Part shown: in pieces, positions 39,156 to 46,434 of the stretch | Position numbering within the stretch: position 1 is the stretch's first letter | Layout of the letters: every line of letters begins with the position of its first letter | Position numbers and translations under genes: made by a program | Source of the DNA: Candidatus Coatesbacteria bacterium | GTDB lineage: Bacteria > RBG-13-66-14 > B26-G2 > JAUVZD01 | Reading direction: 5' to 3' | Length of the DNA stretch: 64,000 nt | Assembly (NCBI GenBank): GCA_030602715.1 | Contig: JAUVZD010000001.1 | Span: 270,213-334,212, forward strand | The notes under the pieces: model-generated | What the model was told of the DNA's origin: nothing | The model's database searches: none | The model's input: the letters and a program-made list of their open reading frames with translations, nothing else

Positions 39156-39806
39156 TTACTCCTCTTCCTTCTTCTCCGTCTTCTTGAAGGGCTCATAAAC
39201 ACCGCCTTCCCTCGGCGGCTGCAACATGTGCTTCAACATGGTATTGCCGGCGCGGATATCCTGGATAACGCTCAGGATTTCCCGCTGAAAGGTCTCCTCA
39301 AAGATCAGGAACCTGCCCAGCTGGATATCATCCAGCACCTCCCCCATTGAAACGAATATATCAGCTTCCTGCCCCACCAGACTGGCTTTGGTCGCCAGAA
39401 GCTCCTCCGTCTTGTCCTTCACTTCATCCACATCCGGTTCGGCGTTGTTCAATAAGTCCAGCAACTCCCTTATCGTACCCTCCCGCTCAATGAAATGCTC
39501 CTGGCGTACATCCTCCAATTGTCTGTATAATGGGAAGAATGTGGTTGACTGCTCCACGGAGAGCCCCAGCACTTCTGTCATACGCCAGATCTTTATCGCC
39601 TCCAGCCGCTCCTCGGCATCCCTGACCTTCTCCTCAAATTCCGCCCCAAATCCAAGGTCATAGGCGCCCTCTGAAGCGCCCCAATAGCCCCAGTAAAACT
39701 CCTGGATGAAGGTGTCCTCCTGGGCAAATCCCACGGAGGCGATTAAGACCATAAAGGAAAGGGTGAGGAATGCAACCACAATCCGAGGGCGATTATCCAT
39801 AGCCAA
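39156..39806 (-). CDS. Periplasmic CpxP/Spy-like (LTXXQ-motif) protein, tentative
   Basis: Signal peptide; helical and acidic; LSVEQSTTFFPLYRQLEDVRQ resembles the LTXXQ motif. Last gene of the ECF sigma/anti-sigma operon. Confidence 0.45.
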   Translation of the reverse strand: MAMDNRPRIVVAFLTLSFMVLIASVGFAQEDTFIQEFYWGYWGASEGAYDLGFGAEFEEKVRDAEERLEAIKIWRMTEVLGLSVEQSTTFFPLYRQLEDVRQEHFIEREGTIRELLDLLNNAEPDVDEVKDKTEELLATKASLVGQEADIFVSMGEVLDDIQLGRFLIFEETFQREILSVIQDIRAGNTMLKHMLQPPREGGVYEPFKKTEKKEEE

Positions 39807-39886
39807 CCTCCTGGAATTCCCGTTGTAAATCTACACAAATCAGGTACAATCTATGGGAAGAATAAAAGCTGGAATTTAATTTTTGC

Positions 39887-40978
39887 CTACTCTCCCAAAA
39901 TGGCAAATACTTTGGTTCTCTCCTCATGGCTCAGGCTGCCTATCACCACATATATTGACGAACCATTCCTTCTGTTGGTGAACTCCTCCAGGAGCACGTT
40001 CTCCAGATAGACCGCATCCTCAGGGGAGATTGATGAGGAGAAGGTAACATAGGTCCCTTCACCGCTGATCTCTGTGCCGGAAGTGACCACATAGGGTAAA
40101 CCGCTACGCACCACCATCTCATCAACCACCAAAGGCAACATCGTGCCCGATATCATCCTCGCAGTAACCGGCATAACCGGGTCCTTTACCGCATAAAAAT
40201 CGGTGATATCCCCATCGGATACCCGGAAGAACCCACCGGAAGAGGAGACGCTGTCCATCAGGTCCCTATCAAATGTTATCACGGGGGAGACATCCGTCTC
40301 CGGGACAGCCATCTCTGTGAAGGGAACCTCCTCCCGGGAATAACGCCCAAAAGTATACTCTAGCTCGTCAGAGACAACCCCTTCTGCGGGAGCGTGGTAA
40401 ATATCAGCACCGCTCAATGCCCCAAGGGTTGTAGATACCGCCTCCTTCTCAGCGGTTAAAGTATGCGGCGGCTTAACGTGCACAAGGGTGGGAACCGGCG
40501 CCTCTTCCTCGGTAACCAGGCCGGGAGCCTCCTCCGTCTTGGGCTTTAACCCTTCAAAATCCCTCGTCTCCAGGGATGAAATATCAAGACCCTCAGGCTC
40601 CTGCGTGTAAGAAAGAACATAGGGAAGAATGTAGAAGCCGGCAAGTCCCACCAGGATAATACCGGCTATTGTTGCCGCTGCAAGGAGCGTCCTGGGCTTC
40701 AAGAGGGGCTTCATTGACAGCACCCTGCCGGCACCCCTCCCCTCAGCTTTAGCCCTCTCTCTCACCCGGATGGCTAGAGTGGACATAAACAGCACCCCGG
40801 CGGAAGCGACTTCCATATCGCCCACCATAGAGAGAAGCTCTCTACCCTGCCTCAAGTAATCACGGCAGAGGGGACATTCCCTCAGATGCTCCTGGACCGA
40901 AAGGGGAAGCTCCTCCTCACTGGTGAGGGTCTCGTCTATAAGATACTGTATTTTTTCACACTTCATATCACTCACCAA
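39887..40978 (-). CDS. Membrane-spanning anti-sigma factor with N-terminal zinc-finger motif
   Basis: CEKIQ..(x)..HLRECPLCRDY (H-x3-C-x2-C), single TM (LLAAATIAGIILVGLAGFYIL), periplasmic C-terminal domain; immediately follows and overlaps the ECF sigma gene. Alternative start MKCEKI at 40966. Confidence 0.6.
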   Translation of the reverse strand: MVSDMKCEKIQYLIDETLTSEEELPLSVQEHLRECPLCRDYLRQGRELLSMVGDMEVASAGVLFMSTLAIRVRERAKAEGRGAGRVLSMKPLLKPRTLLAAATIAGIILVGLAGFYILPYVLSYTQEPEGLDISSLETRDFEGLKPKTEEAPGLVTEEEAPVPTLVHVKPPHTLTAEKEAVSTTLGALSGADIYHAPAEGVVSDELEYTFGRYSREEVPFTEMAVPETDVSPVITFDRDLMDSVSSSGGFFRVSDGDITDFYAVKDPVMPVTARMISGTMLPLVVDEMVVRSGLPYVVTSGTEISGEGTYVTFSSSISPEDAVYLENVLLEEFTNRRNGSSIYVVIGSLSHEERTKVFAILGE

Positions 40979-41652: not shown

Positions 41653-41994
41653 CTATCCCTGGTCCCCTTCTTCCCTTTCTTTGGACATTTTTACCTTCTC
41701 AATCTCTTCTTCGGTATCTTTTATCTCCTTCTCCAGAGCCTTCACCTCGTCAAGCAGGCGAGACACCTCCGGGTCGGCTAAAACCCCCTTCTTTTTCCTG
41801 CTGACCAGGTCATATATCCGCCCACCCAACTCAAAGAAGTTATCGTGAATCTTGCGATGAACTCCAATTATGCGGATGCGCAATCTGGCAATCTGGGTCA
41901 GTTCTCCGGTCTTCTCCAGAAGGGTGGAGATGCCCTCCCGGGTAGCTGTATAACCCTCATCCAGCGTCTTGCTAATCCTCTCCCACAGCGTCAT
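41653..41994 (-). CDS. Hypothetical small coiled-coil protein
   Basis: 113 aa, K/E-rich C-terminal helix; no motif recognised; co-directional with flanking genes. Confidence 0.35.
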   Translation of the reverse strand: MTLWERISKTLDEGYTATREGISTLLEKTGELTQIARLRIRIIGVHRKIHDNFFELGGRIYDLVSRKKKGVLADPEVSRLLDEVKALEKEIKDTEEEIEKVKMSKEREEGDQG

Positions 41995-42072
41995 CTGTCC
42001 CCTCCTTGTGTTAAAAAACCAAGTATCCTCATCAAAGCATCAATCCAGAACTGGTGGTATCCTCCGTGTCAC

Positions 42073-42447
42073 CTACTTGCTCTCATCCAGGAGAGTTTTA
42101 ATCTCCCGCACCGCCCGGTTTATGGTACTGCGACATCTCATATGCGGGTCAGCCAGAACCACCAATGTAAGCACGGTATCGTTCAGGGGGATATAACGGC
42201 AGACTAGAGAATAACCCTCCTCAAGACGGATCACCGTCTCCAGGGCTTCCAGGTCAAAAAGCTTCTTACTCACAGTGCGAATATTCTTTAAACTGGGGGA
42301 AAGGACCACAGCGGTGGGCAGAGGTCCAGCCCCGATGCGGTGGGCTACCTCAAATCCCTCAAAATCTATCAACTCGGCAAGCCCCATTCCCTGCTGCACC
42401 AGATTGAGCATAACCCCGTCAAGTTTAGCGATTATACTGGTCTTCAT
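42073..42447 (-). CDS. Roadblock/LC7-like domain protein, tentative
   Basis: 124 aa; size and pattern (GVMLNLVQQGMGLAELIDFEGFEVA .. LTLVVLADPHMRCRSTINRAVREIKTLL) resemble MglB/roadblock fold proteins; by resemblance only. Confidence 0.4.
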   Translation of the reverse strand: MKTSIIAKLDGVMLNLVQQGMGLAELIDFEGFEVAHRIGAGPLPTAVVLSPSLKNIRTVSKKLFDLEALETVIRLEEGYSLVCRYIPLNDTVLTLVVLADPHMRCRSTINRAVREIKTLLDESK

Positions 42448-42550: not shown

Positions 42551-43621
42551 TTACTGAAGGATTGAGTAGATATCGTCCTCGCTTTTCTTAAAATGCATAT
42601 AACCCGTATCTTCCAAAGGGCGCCGACTTCCAGCATGTATCAGGGAAAGCCCCCTATCCTCCTCCACAACCCTGCCGATTACGGAAAAATGCAGGTCGGC
42701 GGGGAGGCGTATGTCCTCTATCTTGGCATCAGGCTTCAAGGTAACCAGAAGCTCAAAGTCCTCGCCGGCACCAAGGGCTACCCGCAGGGGCTCAACACCC
42801 AGAAAATCGGCGGCGGTTTTTGCACCCTCACACAAAGGTAACGACTCCTGCTCAATCTCCACACCGACACCGCTCGCCCTGCACAGATGATAGAGTTGAG
42901 TGGAGAGGCTGTCGCTGGTATCCGCCATTGAGGTCACCAGTCCGGTCTGTGCCAGTCGGCGGGCTTCTTCCAACCTCGGTTTGGGGTGCAGATGACGCTC
43001 CACAGACGATTCAAAGGAGAGCCCACCCTGCACTCCCTCCAACCTCCCCCGCAGATAAGCCAGCCCACTCCAGGAAGCCCCCAGACCGCCGGTGAGGGCG
43101 ATAATGTCGCCGGGGTTAGCCCCCTTGCGCCGACAGAGTTGCTTGCTCTCCACCCGACCGCGGATGAAGGCGGTGAGAACCATTGTGCCTTCGGTGGCAA
43201 CAGTGTCCCCGCCCACCAGGCTGATGTTCAGTTCCCCACAAGCCTCACCTATCCCCCCGGCAATTCCGGCAATTACCTCCCTTTCTGTATTTTTAGGAAC
43301 CGCCCAGGAGACCAGCGCATAATCGGGTGTGCCAGCCATAGCGGCAATATCGCTGGCGCAGGCGTATATCAGCTTTATTCCCACATCCCCGGGGGAGAAT
43401 ATGTCCCAACTGAAGTGAATCCCTTCAACCAGAGTATCGTCGGTGGCAAGTTCCACCATACCATCGGCATCCGGCGGTCCTGCCCAGGCATCATCCCCGG
43501 GCCAGAGGGGACCCGAAGCGTTATCGGGATAGATTCTTTCGGCTATCTGCCGAATTATCCCCAGCTCATTCAGCGATTCGGCTGAGGATGAGCGCTCTTT
43601 TTTCCCCTTTTCCATAGGCAA
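42551..43621 (-). CDS. thiL: Thiamine-monophosphate kinase (AIR synthase-related family)
   Basis: DDTLVEGIHF, IYACASDIAAMAGTP, GGDTVATEG, ALTGGLGAS are ThiL/PurM-superfamily motifs. Confidence 0.8.
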   Translation of the reverse strand: MPMEKGKKERSSSAESLNELGIIRQIAERIYPDNASGPLWPGDDAWAGPPDADGMVELATDDTLVEGIHFSWDIFSPGDVGIKLIYACASDIAAMAGTPDYALVSWAVPKNTEREVIAGIAGGIGEACGELNISLVGGDTVATEGTMVLTAFIRGRVESKQLCRRKGANPGDIIALTGGLGASWSGLAYLRGRLEGVQGGLSFESSVERHLHPKPRLEEARRLAQTGLVTSMADTSDSLSTQLYHLCRASGVGVEIEQESLPLCEGAKTAADFLGVEPLRVALGAGEDFELLVTLKPDAKIEDIRLPADLHFSVIGRVVEEDRGLSLIHAGSRRPLEDTGYMHFKKSEDDIYSILQ

Positions 43622-43673: not shown

Positions 43674-44753
43674 CTACAGGAAAAAGAAGGCTACCGCTAA
43701 AACCAGATACAGCCCCAGCAGTTGGAGTCCCTCAAGCCAGTTGGAACGACCGTCGTTGGACATAAGCACCGTGCTTACCACGGCAAAAGCGATGGCTACC
43801 AGCTCCAGAGGTTCAAAGACCAAATCCATGGGACTGCCCAGAGCGAGACTGATGAGCACTAAAAATGGCGCCACCAAGAGGGCAATCTGCTGTGCGGAGG
43901 AGGAGCAGATGGCAAAGGACAGGTCCATATTGTTCTTATAGGCGAAAAGGACCGCGCTGGAGTGTTCTGCGGCGTTGGCGATGATAGCCACTATCACCAC
44001 CCCCATAAATATCTCCCCCCAACCAAGGGCTACGATGGTCGGCTCTATTGCCCCCACCAACACCTCGGCGGCGAAAAACAGCCCCACACCGCTGAATATC
44101 AAGGTGAGCACAGAGCGAGGCAGACTCCAGCCGAAAGGAGATTCGTGCTTGGGGGTCATCCTCTCCTCCACCCCAATCTTTTTGAGGAGGAAGTGATGGC
44201 GATGGGTGCGGAAGATAAACAGGAGGCTTGCCAGATATATGATGATAAGCACGATGGAGATGACTATGCTCATCTCCATCAGGTCAACTTTGAGGTGGGC
44301 TGAGGAGACGGTCATGAAGAAAATGGAGGGGATGACCAGCGCCGCCACCGCCAGAGCCATCATATTACTGTTCATGGATGCCATCTTAATACTGAAATGC
44401 TGGACTTTATGGGAGATTCCCCCCACCAGGGCGGACAATCCCCAAACCAGAAGCAGGTTGCCTATGATGGAGCCGGTGATGGATGCTTTTACCACCACGG
44501 AAAGCCCCGCCTTCAGCCCCACTATCCCCACGATGATCTCCGCTCCGTTGCCCATGGTGGCGTTCAGGAGACCGCCGGAGACCGGACCGATTCGGCTGGA
44601 GAGCTCCTCGGTTGACCAGCCAAGCATTATCGCCAGAAGGACAATCCCCACCGCGGAGACGACAAACTCCACAAGCGGATTGATGGATGCAAACATCAAG
44701 ACCGCTGAAAACAGGGTAAAGACTACGCATATGATTATGACCACCCGTACCAT
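43674..44753 (-). CDS. Ca2+/H+ antiporter (CaCA family)
   Basis: Two alpha-repeat signatures (GNGAEIIVGIVG..; GIAIPSS.. NAAEHSSAVLFAYK), about 11 TM helices. Start set to ATG 44753 (MVRVVIII), 4 nt after the galT stop; the ORF-track extension overlaps galT. Confidence 0.8.
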   Translation of the reverse strand: MVRVVIIICVVFTLFSAVLMFASINPLVEFVVSAVGIVLLAIMLGWSTEELSSRIGPVSGGLLNATMGNGAEIIVGIVGLKAGLSVVVKASITGSIIGNLLLVWGLSALVGGISHKVQHFSIKMASMNSNMMALAVAALVIPSIFFMTVSSAHLKVDLMEMSIVISIVLIIIYLASLLFIFRTHRHHFLLKKIGVEERMTPKHESPFGWSLPRSVLTLIFSGVGLFFAAEVLVGAIEPTIVALGWGEIFMGVVIVAIIANAAEHSSAVLFAYKNNMDLSFAICSSSAQQIALLVAPFLVLISLALGSPMDLVFEPLELVAIAFAVVSTVLMSNDGRSNWLEGLQLLGLYLVLAVAFFFL

Positions 44754-44757
44754 AGTC

Positions 44758-45780
44758 TCACTCACCCATAAGAAACTCCCGCACCCTCTCCGGAGGGGTG
44801 GGGTTGATGTAAAAGCCGGTGCCCCACTCAAAGCCCGCCACCCGGGTAAGGCGGGGGAATATCTCAAAATGCCAGTGGTAGTCCACCTCTATGGTAGTCC
44901 AATAGCCGGAGCGGGGGGTGCGCAAGGGGGCGGTGTGCAGGAGCATGTTGTAGTCCGGATTTTCCAGATTTTCCCGCAACTTTATCAATATCATTTTGAG
45001 AATCTTAGAGAGGGAGGTCAACTCCTGCGGGCTAATTTTATGGTAATCGGATTGATGCTTCTTGGGAATAACCCACATCTCAAAGGGGAAGCGAGAGGCG
45101 AAGGGGGCGATGACCGCAAAATGCTCATCATCCATCACCAGACGCTCCCCGGCTTTCATCTCCTGCTTCAGGTAGTCGCAGAAGATACAGCGCTCCTTCT
45201 CCTGATAATACTTCTTGGAGCTTTGGAGCTCCTCCTTCACCGTGATGGGGGTAACCGGGGTGGCTATCAGCTGGGAGTGGGCATGGGGCAGGCTGGCTCC
45301 GGCCCGAATCCCCTGATTCTTGAATACCATTGCGTAGCGCAGGCGGTCATCTCTGTCCAGTTCTATAATCCGCTCCCTGAAAGCCCCCAGAACAAGCTCA
45401 ATATGCTCCTCCGGTAGGTCCGATAACCTCTGGTCATGACGGGGGGTCTCCACGATCACCTCGTGCGCTCCCACTCCCTCAGCCATGTCGCACATCCCTA
45501 TCCCCCGCCGGGCGACATCCCCTTCAATGCGCAGGACGGGATACTTGTTGGGAATTACTCGCACCAGCCAGCCGGGCCCGTTCGCCTTTCCCCCACCGGG
45601 ACGGACCGCATATATCTCCGGCGGGGTCATATGCTCGTTTCCCTCGCAGAAGGGACAGCCCTCGCTCTTTGTATCCGACGGCGTTTCAGCGCTACTTTTG
45701 AAATGGTGCGGTCTAGCATCCCTTTCGGTGGCAATTATCACCCAACGGGAAACTATGGGGTCCTTTCGCAACTCGGACAT
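44758..45780 (-). CDS. galT: Galactose-1-phosphate uridylyltransferase
   Basis: CPFCEGNE zinc knuckle, HEVIVETPRH, LPHAHSQL (HxH active site), FEMWVIPKKH. Confidence 0.9.
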   Translation of the reverse strand: MSELRKDPIVSRWVIIATERDARPHHFKSSAETPSDTKSEGCPFCEGNEHMTPPEIYAVRPGGGKANGPGWLVRVIPNKYPVLRIEGDVARRGIGMCDMAEGVGAHEVIVETPRHDQRLSDLPEEHIELVLGAFRERIIELDRDDRLRYAMVFKNQGIRAGASLPHAHSQLIATPVTPITVKEELQSSKKYYQEKERCIFCDYLKQEMKAGERLVMDDEHFAVIAPFASRFPFEMWVIPKKHQSDYHKISPQELTSLSKILKMILIKLRENLENPDYNMLLHTAPLRTPRSGYWTTIEVDYHWHFEIFPRLTRVAGFEWGTGFYINPTPPERVREFLMGE

Positions 45781-45809: not shown

Positions 45810-46364
45810 TCATATCTTGAGGGAGATGTATTCTGCGGGAATATACTGGCAGAGATAATCCCTCTCGCTTCTGAAAAACTTCACCCCAGCCTGGTGAGCT
45901 CTCTTTGCGGAGACTGCGATAATTACCGGGCTGGGGGAGACCTTTCCTCCCTGATACCAGGCTTCGTCAACGGTCTCAGCCAGGAAGATGAAGCGCCTTC
46001 CCAGGGGCTTCAGCCCATATTTGGTGACCGAGGAGACCATAAGCTGAGGCAGACCGTGATAGAGGATTTCAGGGGGGATGACCTCCTCCGGTTCGGGGCG
46101 AATCATATATCGGTGACCGCTCACCGCCTTGACCCGCTCCTGCCACCGCTCAAAATGTGACCCGTCGCCGATAACTTCCTCAATCTGCCGGGGGGTAGCC
46201 CAGTTGGAGACCGTCCTTACCACCAGCTTCAACTGCTCCAAGCTCACAAAGCCCCATTCATCTACCTTAATCCCAAACTGCTCGGGGTCCTCCCGAAGAA
46301 TCCTCAACAGTAAATCTCGCAGTTCCTCCCTCTGCTTGCGGGATGCAAAGAGACTTTCACCCAT
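45810..46364 (-). CDS. kptA: KptA/Tpt1-family RNA 2'-phosphotransferase homologue
   Basis: LLRILREDPEQFGIKVDEWGFVSLEQL and ILYHGLPQLMVSSV..GLKP..RRFIFL align with E. coli KptA ([38 protein letters not shown]..GL); but LRE replaces LRH. Confidence 0.7.
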   Translation of the reverse strand: MGESLFASRKQREELRDLLLRILREDPEQFGIKVDEWGFVSLEQLKLVVRTVSNWATPRQIEEVIGDGSHFERWQERVKAVSGHRYMIRPEPEEVIPPEILYHGLPQLMVSSVTKYGLKPLGRRFIFLAETVDEAWYQGGKVSPSPVIIAVSAKRAHQAGVKFFRSERDYLCQYIPAEYISLKI

Positions 46365-46434
46365 ATTTGAATTCTATTAAAGGGCGCAGGTCATGTCAAC
46401 TATATTATATTTTCCGCAAAGATGCCCACAGTTG

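Follow-up and report, generated by a model that had tools for sequence, protein, structure and literature searches.

We analysed a 64,000-nucleotide stretch of DNA from Candidatus Coatesbacteria (assembly GCA_030602715.1, contig JAUVZD010000001.1, positions 270,213 to 334,212; hereafter the window). Here we describe a minus-strand gene at its positions 45810..46364, an open reading frame (ORF) with an ATG start that encodes a 184-aa protein of the Tpt1/KptA fold with an altered catalytic tetrad. Fungi and plants depend on Tpt1 to splice their tRNAs, whereas what it does in bacteria is a long-standing puzzle. An original prediction, made by a model from the DNA letters and their translations, had called this gene a KptA/Tpt1 homologue in which, provided that its alignment held, two tetrad residues are substituted, and had proposed that the variant active site could serve a different activity dependent on nicotinamide adenine dinucleotide (NAD+). 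It had also placed the gene at the head of a same-strand string of genes running down to an extracytoplasmic function (ECF) sigma factor gene, and the gene does occupy this position. A sigma-70-like promoter sequence stands in front of it, and a GalT-family gene, cax and thiL follow it.

The window protein is a member of the Tpt1/KptA family

The window protein matches PF01885 with 61 bits (E 1.8e-16; gathering cut-off 26), and in phmmer comparisons with solved Tpt1/KptA structures (PDB chains) the E-values range from 9e-21 to 1e-7, the best matches, at about 1e-20, being the Thermococcus, Pyrococcus and Clostridium enzymes. An AlphaFold2 (AF2) model obtained from 19 input sequences has a mean predicted local distance difference test score (pLDDT) of 92 and a Tpt1-like order of helices and strands. 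When this model was compared with the PDB using Foldseek, the top 21 matches were all Tpt1/KptA/TRPT1 chains, with probability 1.0 and template modelling (TM) scores of 0.5-0.6. Scores of only this size fit the documented mobility of the two Tpt1 lobes relative to each other. The proposed homology is thus borne out, and the window protein is a genuine member of the Tpt1/KptA family with its two-lobe fold, a winged-helix RNA lobe and an NAD+ lobe resembling ADP-ribosyltransferases.

With the canonical Tpt1/KptA/TRPT1 enzymes (PF01885; Cth Tpt1 6E3A, Tko KptA 9LD3-9LDI, Pho Tpt1 8TFI and E. coli KptA) the protein has in common the fold, a length of about 180 aa and 27-28% identity. The shared core comprises L23, P27, D35, G38, the [FY]-E pair, A80, the G-H and L-Y pairs and G117-L118, as well as L128, A135, G160, F163 and P176. 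The NCBIfam equivalogs for RNA 2'-phosphotransferase (NF002012-NF002015) are nevertheless not reached, the best score being 107.5 bits against cut-offs of 231-279, and all nine members of the clade described below fall far short of these cut-offs.

A tblastn search of the 64-kb window with the E. coli and C. thermocellum sequences found no second Tpt1, canonical or other, and an Rfam scan of the window returned no tRNA, rRNA or other match. PADLOC gave no defence-system match for the Tpt1-like protein. Net charge and pI were considered as a proxy for lost RNA binding and discarded as non-discriminating, with pI values of 5.9-8.7 in the clade and net charges from -17 to +23 among canonical proteins.

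The catalytic tetrad and the phosphate cage are dismantled

To place the tetrad, we matched residue counts along the sequences from E. coli, C. thermocellum and P. horikoshii to the published numbering, which is R21/H22/R69/R125 in E. coli KptA, R18/H19/R68/R121 in CthTpt1 and R14/H15/R62/R115 in PhoTpt1 (PMC6333775, PMC6097658, PMC10622864). The third Arg, which is Eco Arg69, Cth Arg68, Pho Arg62 and Rsl Arg64, lies in the motif DKKR[YF]E. In HMMER and MAFFT alignments the canonical R-H-R-R tetrad reads R24-E25-H70-R123 in the window protein. At its N-terminus, L-R-E-D-P-E indeed replaces L-R-H-x-P-E, with Arg24 kept and the His changed to Glu25 (codons at 46290..46295, minus strand). The motif K-x-R-[YF]-E has become G68-S-H70-F-E72 (46149..46163, minus), which removes both the Lys of the phosphate cage and the third Arg of the tetrad, and F71-E72 anchors this segment to the IRA motif with the same 8-residue spacing as in CthTpt1.

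The original count of two substituted tetrad residues was therefore right (Glu25 and His70), although the second had been misidentified as the Lys of V-K-A. That segment is present as read, K79-A-V-S82-G-H84 (46113..46130, minus), and its Lys79 stands for a conserved Arg (Cth Arg77, Eco Arg80) which is not a tetrad residue; position 79 is Arg in the orthologues of the window protein. In the same segment Ser82 replaces the phosphate-contacting Tyr and the G-H pair is kept. The same mistaking of the IRA Arg for the tetrad Arg lay behind another candidate interpretation, namely that the clade keeps the Arg pair gripping the phosphate to be transferred and has given up only its contacts with the 3'-phosphate, and residue counting led us to reject it.

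In canonical enzymes the tetrad Arg-Arg pair, together with a Lys, a Tyr and a further Arg, cages the 2'-phosphate, while the 3'-phosphate is bound by the His together with the distal Arg (PMC6333775, PMC10622864). The cage residues beyond the tetrad (Pho Lys60, Tyr74 and Arg133) correspond to G68, S82 and K141 in the window protein, only the last being a conservative change. The pyrophosphate Arg (Cth R139) and the adjoining Arg/His position (Cth R140) are occupied by K141 and V142. The HGT motif, which contacts the adenosine 2'-OH and the nicotinamide amide (PMC6333775, PMC10622864) and whose His and Thr are reported to be possibly redundant (PMC6333775), reads H103-G104-L105 (46050..46058, minus), with the NAD+-contacting His and Gly both kept and the Thr lost. 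The canonical R-Q-Y-V-H stretch reads R123-R124-F-I-F127 (45984..45998, minus), in which the fourth tetrad Arg is kept in the window species only and the His of the VHLS motif, here IFLA, has become Phe. This His hydrogen-bonds the ribose 2''-OH of nicotinamide mononucleotide (NMN), the nucleophile of step 2, in TkoTpt1 and PhoTpt1 (PMC10622864 for Pho). From CthTpt1 to the window protein, the full correspondence is R18 to R24, H19 to E25, K66 to G68, R68 to H70, Y80 to S82, HGT to HGL, R121 to R123, H125 to F127, R139 to K141 and R140 to V142. The substitutions thus cover the His, the Lys, the Arg, the Tyr, the VHLS His and the pyrophosphate Arg/His pair, that is, the grip on the 2'- and 3'-phosphates of the substrate and step 2. 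The adenine-binding loop, in contrast to this apparatus, is preserved (S/T112, V/F113, G117-L118 and P120).

We compared these positions across 154 aligned sequences (153 proteins including the window protein, mostly best representative matches, and E. coli KptA). Among the other 153 sequences, position 25 is His in 142, position 70 is Arg in 145 and position 123 is Arg in 141; of all 154, 138 have the complete tetrad. Because the canonical residues are so nearly universal in this alignment, the substitutions in the window protein are genuine departures and not alignment noise. The by-eye alignment behind the original prediction had not been shifted, and the tetrad is not intact.

Could the window protein still be an ordinary RNA 2'-phosphotransferase, a divergent canonical KptA whose substitutions are tolerated? 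Its Pfam match above the gathering score and the presence of R24, H103 and R123 would agree with such an enzyme, as would the annotation 'putative RNA 2'-phosphotransferase' that its relatives carry at source. Each tetrad residue, however, is essential in vivo, single Ala changes being lethal in yeast complementation with the Sce, Eco and Rsl enzymes and tetrad Ala mutants losing specific activity by 130- to 4800-fold (PMC6097658). Here two of the four residues are absent, the phosphate cage is missing its Lys, Arg and Tyr and the VHLS motif its His, the NCBIfam equivalog scores are less than half of the cut-offs, and the sequences with which it aligns keep the tetrad almost throughout. We consider this reading highly improbable. 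Since most of the phosphate-handling apparatus is gone, canonical 2'-phosphotransfer is very unlikely on sequence grounds, and removal of RNA 2'-phosphates by the window protein would not be expected.

The window protein resembles laboratory mutants arrested at step 2

The pattern of losses has a close counterpart in mutants made in the laboratory. In TkoTpt1 only R17A, H98A and R118A abolish all product, while H18A, K63A, R65A, Y77A, R136A and H137A form the ADP-ribosylated intermediate and no final product (PMC12678800). In RslTpt1, step 1 is only 3-fold slower with R64A and 6-fold slower with H17A (PMC6097658). The positions changed in step-2-arrest mutants (RslTpt1 R64A/H17A/R119A; TkoTpt1 H18A, K63A, R65A, Y77A, R136A and H137A; SceTpt1 K69A-R71S) are the same as those naturally substituted in the window protein, which keeps the three residues needed for any product. 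The mutants differ from it in being canonical enzymes apart from single or double changes, whereas the window protein has at least seven such positions altered at once, in addition to the VHLS His.

We could therefore imagine a natural 'step-2-arrested' Tpt1, an NAD+-dependent ADP-ribosyltransferase that performs only step 1, and this likeness gives a directly testable prediction. The argument for it is that R24, H103-G104 and R123, the equivalents of Tko R17, H98 and R118, are kept, while all six Tko step-2-arrest positions are substituted (E25, G68, H70, S82, K141 and V142) and the His contacting the attacking 2''-OH is Phe127. The small effects of the RslTpt1 R64A and H17A mutations on step 1, the preserved adenine-binding loop and a partner in the operon whose family handles ADP-sugars would all fit. 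With the Lys, Arg and Tyr of the cage all missing, however, there is no evident way to position the phosphate nucleophile, and the relatives of the window protein, to which we now turn, speak against it further. Overall we rate a step-1-only enzyme as unlikely.

A small clade has lost the old active site and gained new invariant residues

When 5.8 billion clusters were searched by word index, orthologues came up in only three, at 62-63% identity, and in an exhaustive HMMER scan of 1.84 billion representatives identity falls from 62% straight to 39%. The three orthologues form subclade A together with the window protein. A profile search added a sister group at 36-43% identity, subclade B (P0005, P0154, P0155/P0194 and P0156), of which P0156, at 43% identity, comes from a Candidatus Coatesbacteria metagenome-assembled genome (MAG). 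In JGI metagenome contigs, a scan turned up only six loci. The clade thus comprises about eight protein clusters in two subclades, all from uncultured bacteria. In a neighbour-joining (NJ) tree, bootstrap support is 44/50 for subclade A and 37/50 for subclade B, and the mean NJ distance between clade and canonical proteins is 1.79, against 1.30 among canonical proteins.

The orthologues do not carry the canonical residues either, and they differ from one another. In subclade A, position 25 is E/Q/K/E, position 70 is H/S/S/L and position 123 is R/G/G/T, which gives the three orthologues the tetrads R-Q-S-G, R-K-S-G and R-E-L-T. In subclade B the same positions are D/D/E/E, D/I/E/E and G/D/D/D, with tetrads such as R-D-D-G, T-D-I-D and T-E-E-D; Arg24 is replaced by Thr in three of the four proteins, and HGT has become A-[TLV]-V in all four, so that the His-Gly is lost. 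The VHLS His, present in 143 of 145 canonical sequences, is F/F/F/Y/Y/C/Y/R across the clade. The orthologues therefore go beyond the step-2-arrest mutants, as step-1 residues are also lost in them. Variation of the old tetrad sites among the nearest orthologues indicates lost constraint at the old site, and not a new specificity built on its tetrad positions, although the active site is altered as the original prediction held.

These observations weigh on a step-1-only activity. Orthologues 62% identical to the window protein have Gly or Thr at position 123, a strain variant of the window species itself (P0165) carries R123K, and the neighbouring Arg124, one position along the strand, is not obviously equivalent to Arg123. 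Subclade B has both the operon and the derived motifs in common with subclade A, yet it has lost R24 in three of four members and the HGT His-Gly in all four, so a function common to the clade cannot depend on either. A different NAD+-dependent activity, as first proposed, is consequently one option only, and for the clade as a whole it is weakened.

While the old sites vary, other residues, about eight of them new, have become fixed. The clade has lost ten positions that are conserved in at least 84% of 145 canonical sequences (S16, H25, R70, Y82, S85, T105, I113, R123, H127 and R141), and W37, R124, W136, Y137, S145, S166 and R168 are invariant in the clade and present in at most 15% of the canonical set. 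In total, 39 positions are invariant across nine clade sequences. The most distinctive of the new features is the motif D133-E-A-W-Y137 (45954..45968, minus), located on the helix after the VHLS strand. This 'DEAWY' motif is invariant in eight of eight clade members, while the frequencies of W136 and Y137 among the canonical sequences are 3% and 0%, and by alignment it adjoins the residue that packs on the nicotinamide in canonical enzymes (Tko Thr133, Pho Thr130). Unlike canonical Tpt1, then, the window protein combines an R-E-H-R tetrad with the loss of the cage Lys and Tyr, HGL and IFLA motifs, Lys and Val for the pyrophosphate Arg/His, and the new invariant W37, R124, DEAWY, S166 and R168; it still shares with the canonical enzymes the Arg that opens the tetrad and the H-G of HGT and, for the window species, also the fourth Arg.

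The nearest canonical proteins (P0157, P0006 and P0007, 34-38% identity) share with the window protein an N-terminal extension of the form LF-x-S-[RH]-x-Q and overall collinearity. They differ from it in that the R-H-R-R tetrad, HGT, VHLS and the GRR arch are all intact. Three proteins of the 90%-identity cluster of the window protein (P0165, P0169 and P0170) have been called as 167 aa, starting at residue 18, which could mean that the start was called differently or that these strains have a disrupted N-terminus.

The Tpt1-like gene is under purifying selection

Given so many lost catalytic residues and such variable positions in the old active site, the gene might be a decaying, functionless remnant, kept by its position in front of an operon. 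The pattern of substitution makes this barely credible. Within the species, the Tpt1-like gene shows 6-9 synonymous and 0 nonsynonymous differences, and between species the ratio of nonsynonymous to synonymous rates (dN/dS) comes to 0.04-0.12, dS being saturated. The four proteins of subclade A have an identical length of 184 aa, free of insertions and deletions, and the invariant positions of the clade, the confident AF2 model and the conserved spacing between promoter and ATG likewise speak against decay. The low dN/dS, the lack of nonsynonymous differences and the constant length show that the Tpt1-like gene is a functional gene under purifying selection, not a remnant. Variable old catalytic sites in an otherwise constrained protein, combined with new invariant residues elsewhere, point to a repurposed fold instead of a retuned tetrad.

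The gene heads a conserved operon with a GalT-family gene and thiL

In every clade locus that reaches far enough downstream, the order is the same: the Tpt1-like gene comes first, a GalT-family gene second and thiL after it, with cax in between at some loci. In the window, the GalT-family gene (44758..45780, minus; 340 aa) follows after a 29-nt gap that contains an AGGAGG Shine-Dalgarno sequence; the gap is 24-35 nt in subclade A, while their counterparts in subclade B lie directly next to each other or share a few bases, with overlapping starts and stops. The outer flanks differ, with murA upstream in subclade A and mnmA-like and other genes upstream in subclade B. Next in the window comes cax, a Ca2+/H+ exchanger gene (43674..44765, minus; TIGR00378, 312 bits against 211), which shares 8 nt with the end of the GalT-like gene, and then thiL, the thiamine-phosphate kinase gene (42551..43621, minus; TIGR01379, 247 bits against 184). 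With or without cax, thiL follows the GalT-like gene in both subclades. The cax gene occupies this junction only in the window species and in a Coatesbacteria relative (L029, 5114-6172), and it is either ancestral and repeatedly lost or was inserted twice at one junction.

The predicted promoter, TTGACA-17-TAGAAT (46371..46399, minus), matches the consensus at 11 of 12 positions and ends 6 nt before the ATG of the Tpt1-like gene. The arrangement GTTGACA-N17-TA[GC]AAT-6nt-ATG is kept in all four subclade-A species (upstream regions of L004, L008, L032 and L034) despite saturated synonymous sites, and a Shine-Dalgarno sequence before this ATG is absent. Together, the conserved spacing and the missing Shine-Dalgarno suggest that the operon transcript is probably leaderless, starting at the ATG.

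The GalT-like protein scores 116.8 bits with TIGR00209 (cut-off 102), and NCBIfam accordingly names it galT. Its closest structural relative is another enzyme: it aligns end to end (residues 3-335, E 2.5e-76) with PDB 1Z84 (also 2H39), the Arabidopsis At5g18200 protein, against E 5e-23 for E. coli GalT. At5g18200 is an ADP-glucose phosphorylase (PDB 1Z84; bioRxiv 10.64898/2026.09.13.751320). The GalT-like protein of the window has the CxxC zinc site as CPFC at residue 42 and the HxHxQ active site as HAHSQ at residue 166, and an At5g18200-like specificity is a prediction for this histidine triad (HIT) enzyme. The GalT-like neighbour may thus be an ADP-sugar phosphorylase or adenylyltransferase rather than an enzyme of the Leloir pathway.

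This GalT-like family has at least 8000 close homologues in many anaerobic phyla and is usually not linked to Tpt1. Two Chloroflexota/Anaerolineales genomes encode homologues with 59-60% identity that have neither Tpt1 nor thiL as neighbours, and these unlinked genes indicate that the Tpt1-GalT linkage is specific to the clade. The canonical P0157 has no GalT-like gene after it on its short contig. One Anaerolineales MAG (GCA_964474655.1; loci L010 and L039) has a Tpt1 homologue on contig 15 and a GalT-like gene of 60% identity on contig 25, with no apparent linkage between the two; in L039 the GalT-like gene lies downstream of a CRISPR-associated RAMP-domain gene.

Further along the same strand, two ORFs of 124 and 113 aa lie upstream of the ECF sigma gene (41653-42447, minus) and two of 363 and 216 aa downstream of it (39156-40978, minus), none with a significant Pfam or NCBIfam match. 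All four are syntenic in a 62%-identity relative (L004) and may act with the ECF sigma factor as anti-sigma or regulatory partners.

Discussion

Our results identify a clear natural exception to the 'invariant' catalytic tetrad of Tpt1. The core idea of the original prediction holds: the active site is non-canonical and probably serves some purpose other than canonical 2'-phosphotransfer. As an explanation we lean, with little more than even confidence, towards a neofunctionalised Tpt1 fold that is no longer a phosphotransferase and that probably binds a ligand of the adenine-nucleotide type, alongside the co-expressed HIT enzyme. The protein would descend from a canonical RNA 2'-phosphotransferase that lost its old chemistry, the gene being retained for another role. 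Its old phosphate-binding cleft would no longer be used, and the nicotinamide-ribose pocket would have been rebuilt with the aromatic residues F127, W136 and Y137. Because the adenine loop is preserved and the neighbouring pocket appears rebuilt, an adenine-nucleotide-type ligand is most likely the one still bound. The protein could then be a partner that binds or regulates without catalysis, or it could be an enzyme whose site is new, and it would be produced together with the At5g18200-like adenylyl-transferring HIT enzyme and ThiL from a leaderless operon. This setting differs from that of canonical Tpt1 in being an operon with a GalT-family enzyme and thiL and not an RNA-repair context.

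Several points weigh against this explanation. The residues R24, H103 and R123 of the window protein are equivalents of Arg17, His98 and Arg118, the dead-mutant positions of TkoTpt1, and, by comparison with that enzyme, every substituted residue belongs to the class whose mutants still perform step 1. With the former kept and the latter confined to the step-1-competent class, the window protein may have residual ADP-ribosyl transfer. In addition, the operon partners look like ordinary housekeeping genes, so that the linkage could be inherited gene order and not functional coupling. Monophyly of subclades A and B is supported by only 30/50 bootstraps, and the 'invariant' residues come from few sequences, about eight protein clusters.

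It is also tempting to speculate further than a neofunctionalised fold, and to see in the 'DEAWY' clade a new functional family, built on the Tpt1 fold, that works with the co-translated HIT enzyme, and possibly with ThiL, in an undescribed pathway of NAD+-derived, ADP-ribose-derived or phospho-metabolites. In such a pathway the protein, as a natural step-1-only Tpt1, might form a stable phospho-ADP-ribosyl adduct for the HIT enzyme to process, or it might serve as its ligand-sensing, non-catalytic subunit. We regard this extension as doubtful. Neither Tpt1 homologues devoid of the tetrad nor an association between Tpt1 and GalT is described in the literature that we searched.

Only about eight of 5.8 billion protein clusters belong to this rare clade, and its function is read from sequence, which limits the impact of these findings. 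Within this scope, they indicate that a Tpt1 fold is open to repurposing, since both the tetrad and the machinery of step 2 have been dismantled in a gene that stays under purifying selection and at a fixed position at the head of its operon. They also imply that the automatic annotation 'RNA 2'-phosphotransferase' is probably wrong for the proteins of this clade. Moreover, our representative search returned separate Tpt1-family groups without the tetrad (P0011, P0035 and P0069, and also P0140, P0142 and P0148), one of which reads R-[IK]-x-K, with 'GQHF' for GHS and 'L-[AG]-[TI]-N' for HGT. The canonical site may, to judge from such sequences, have been lost more than once in the Tpt1 family.

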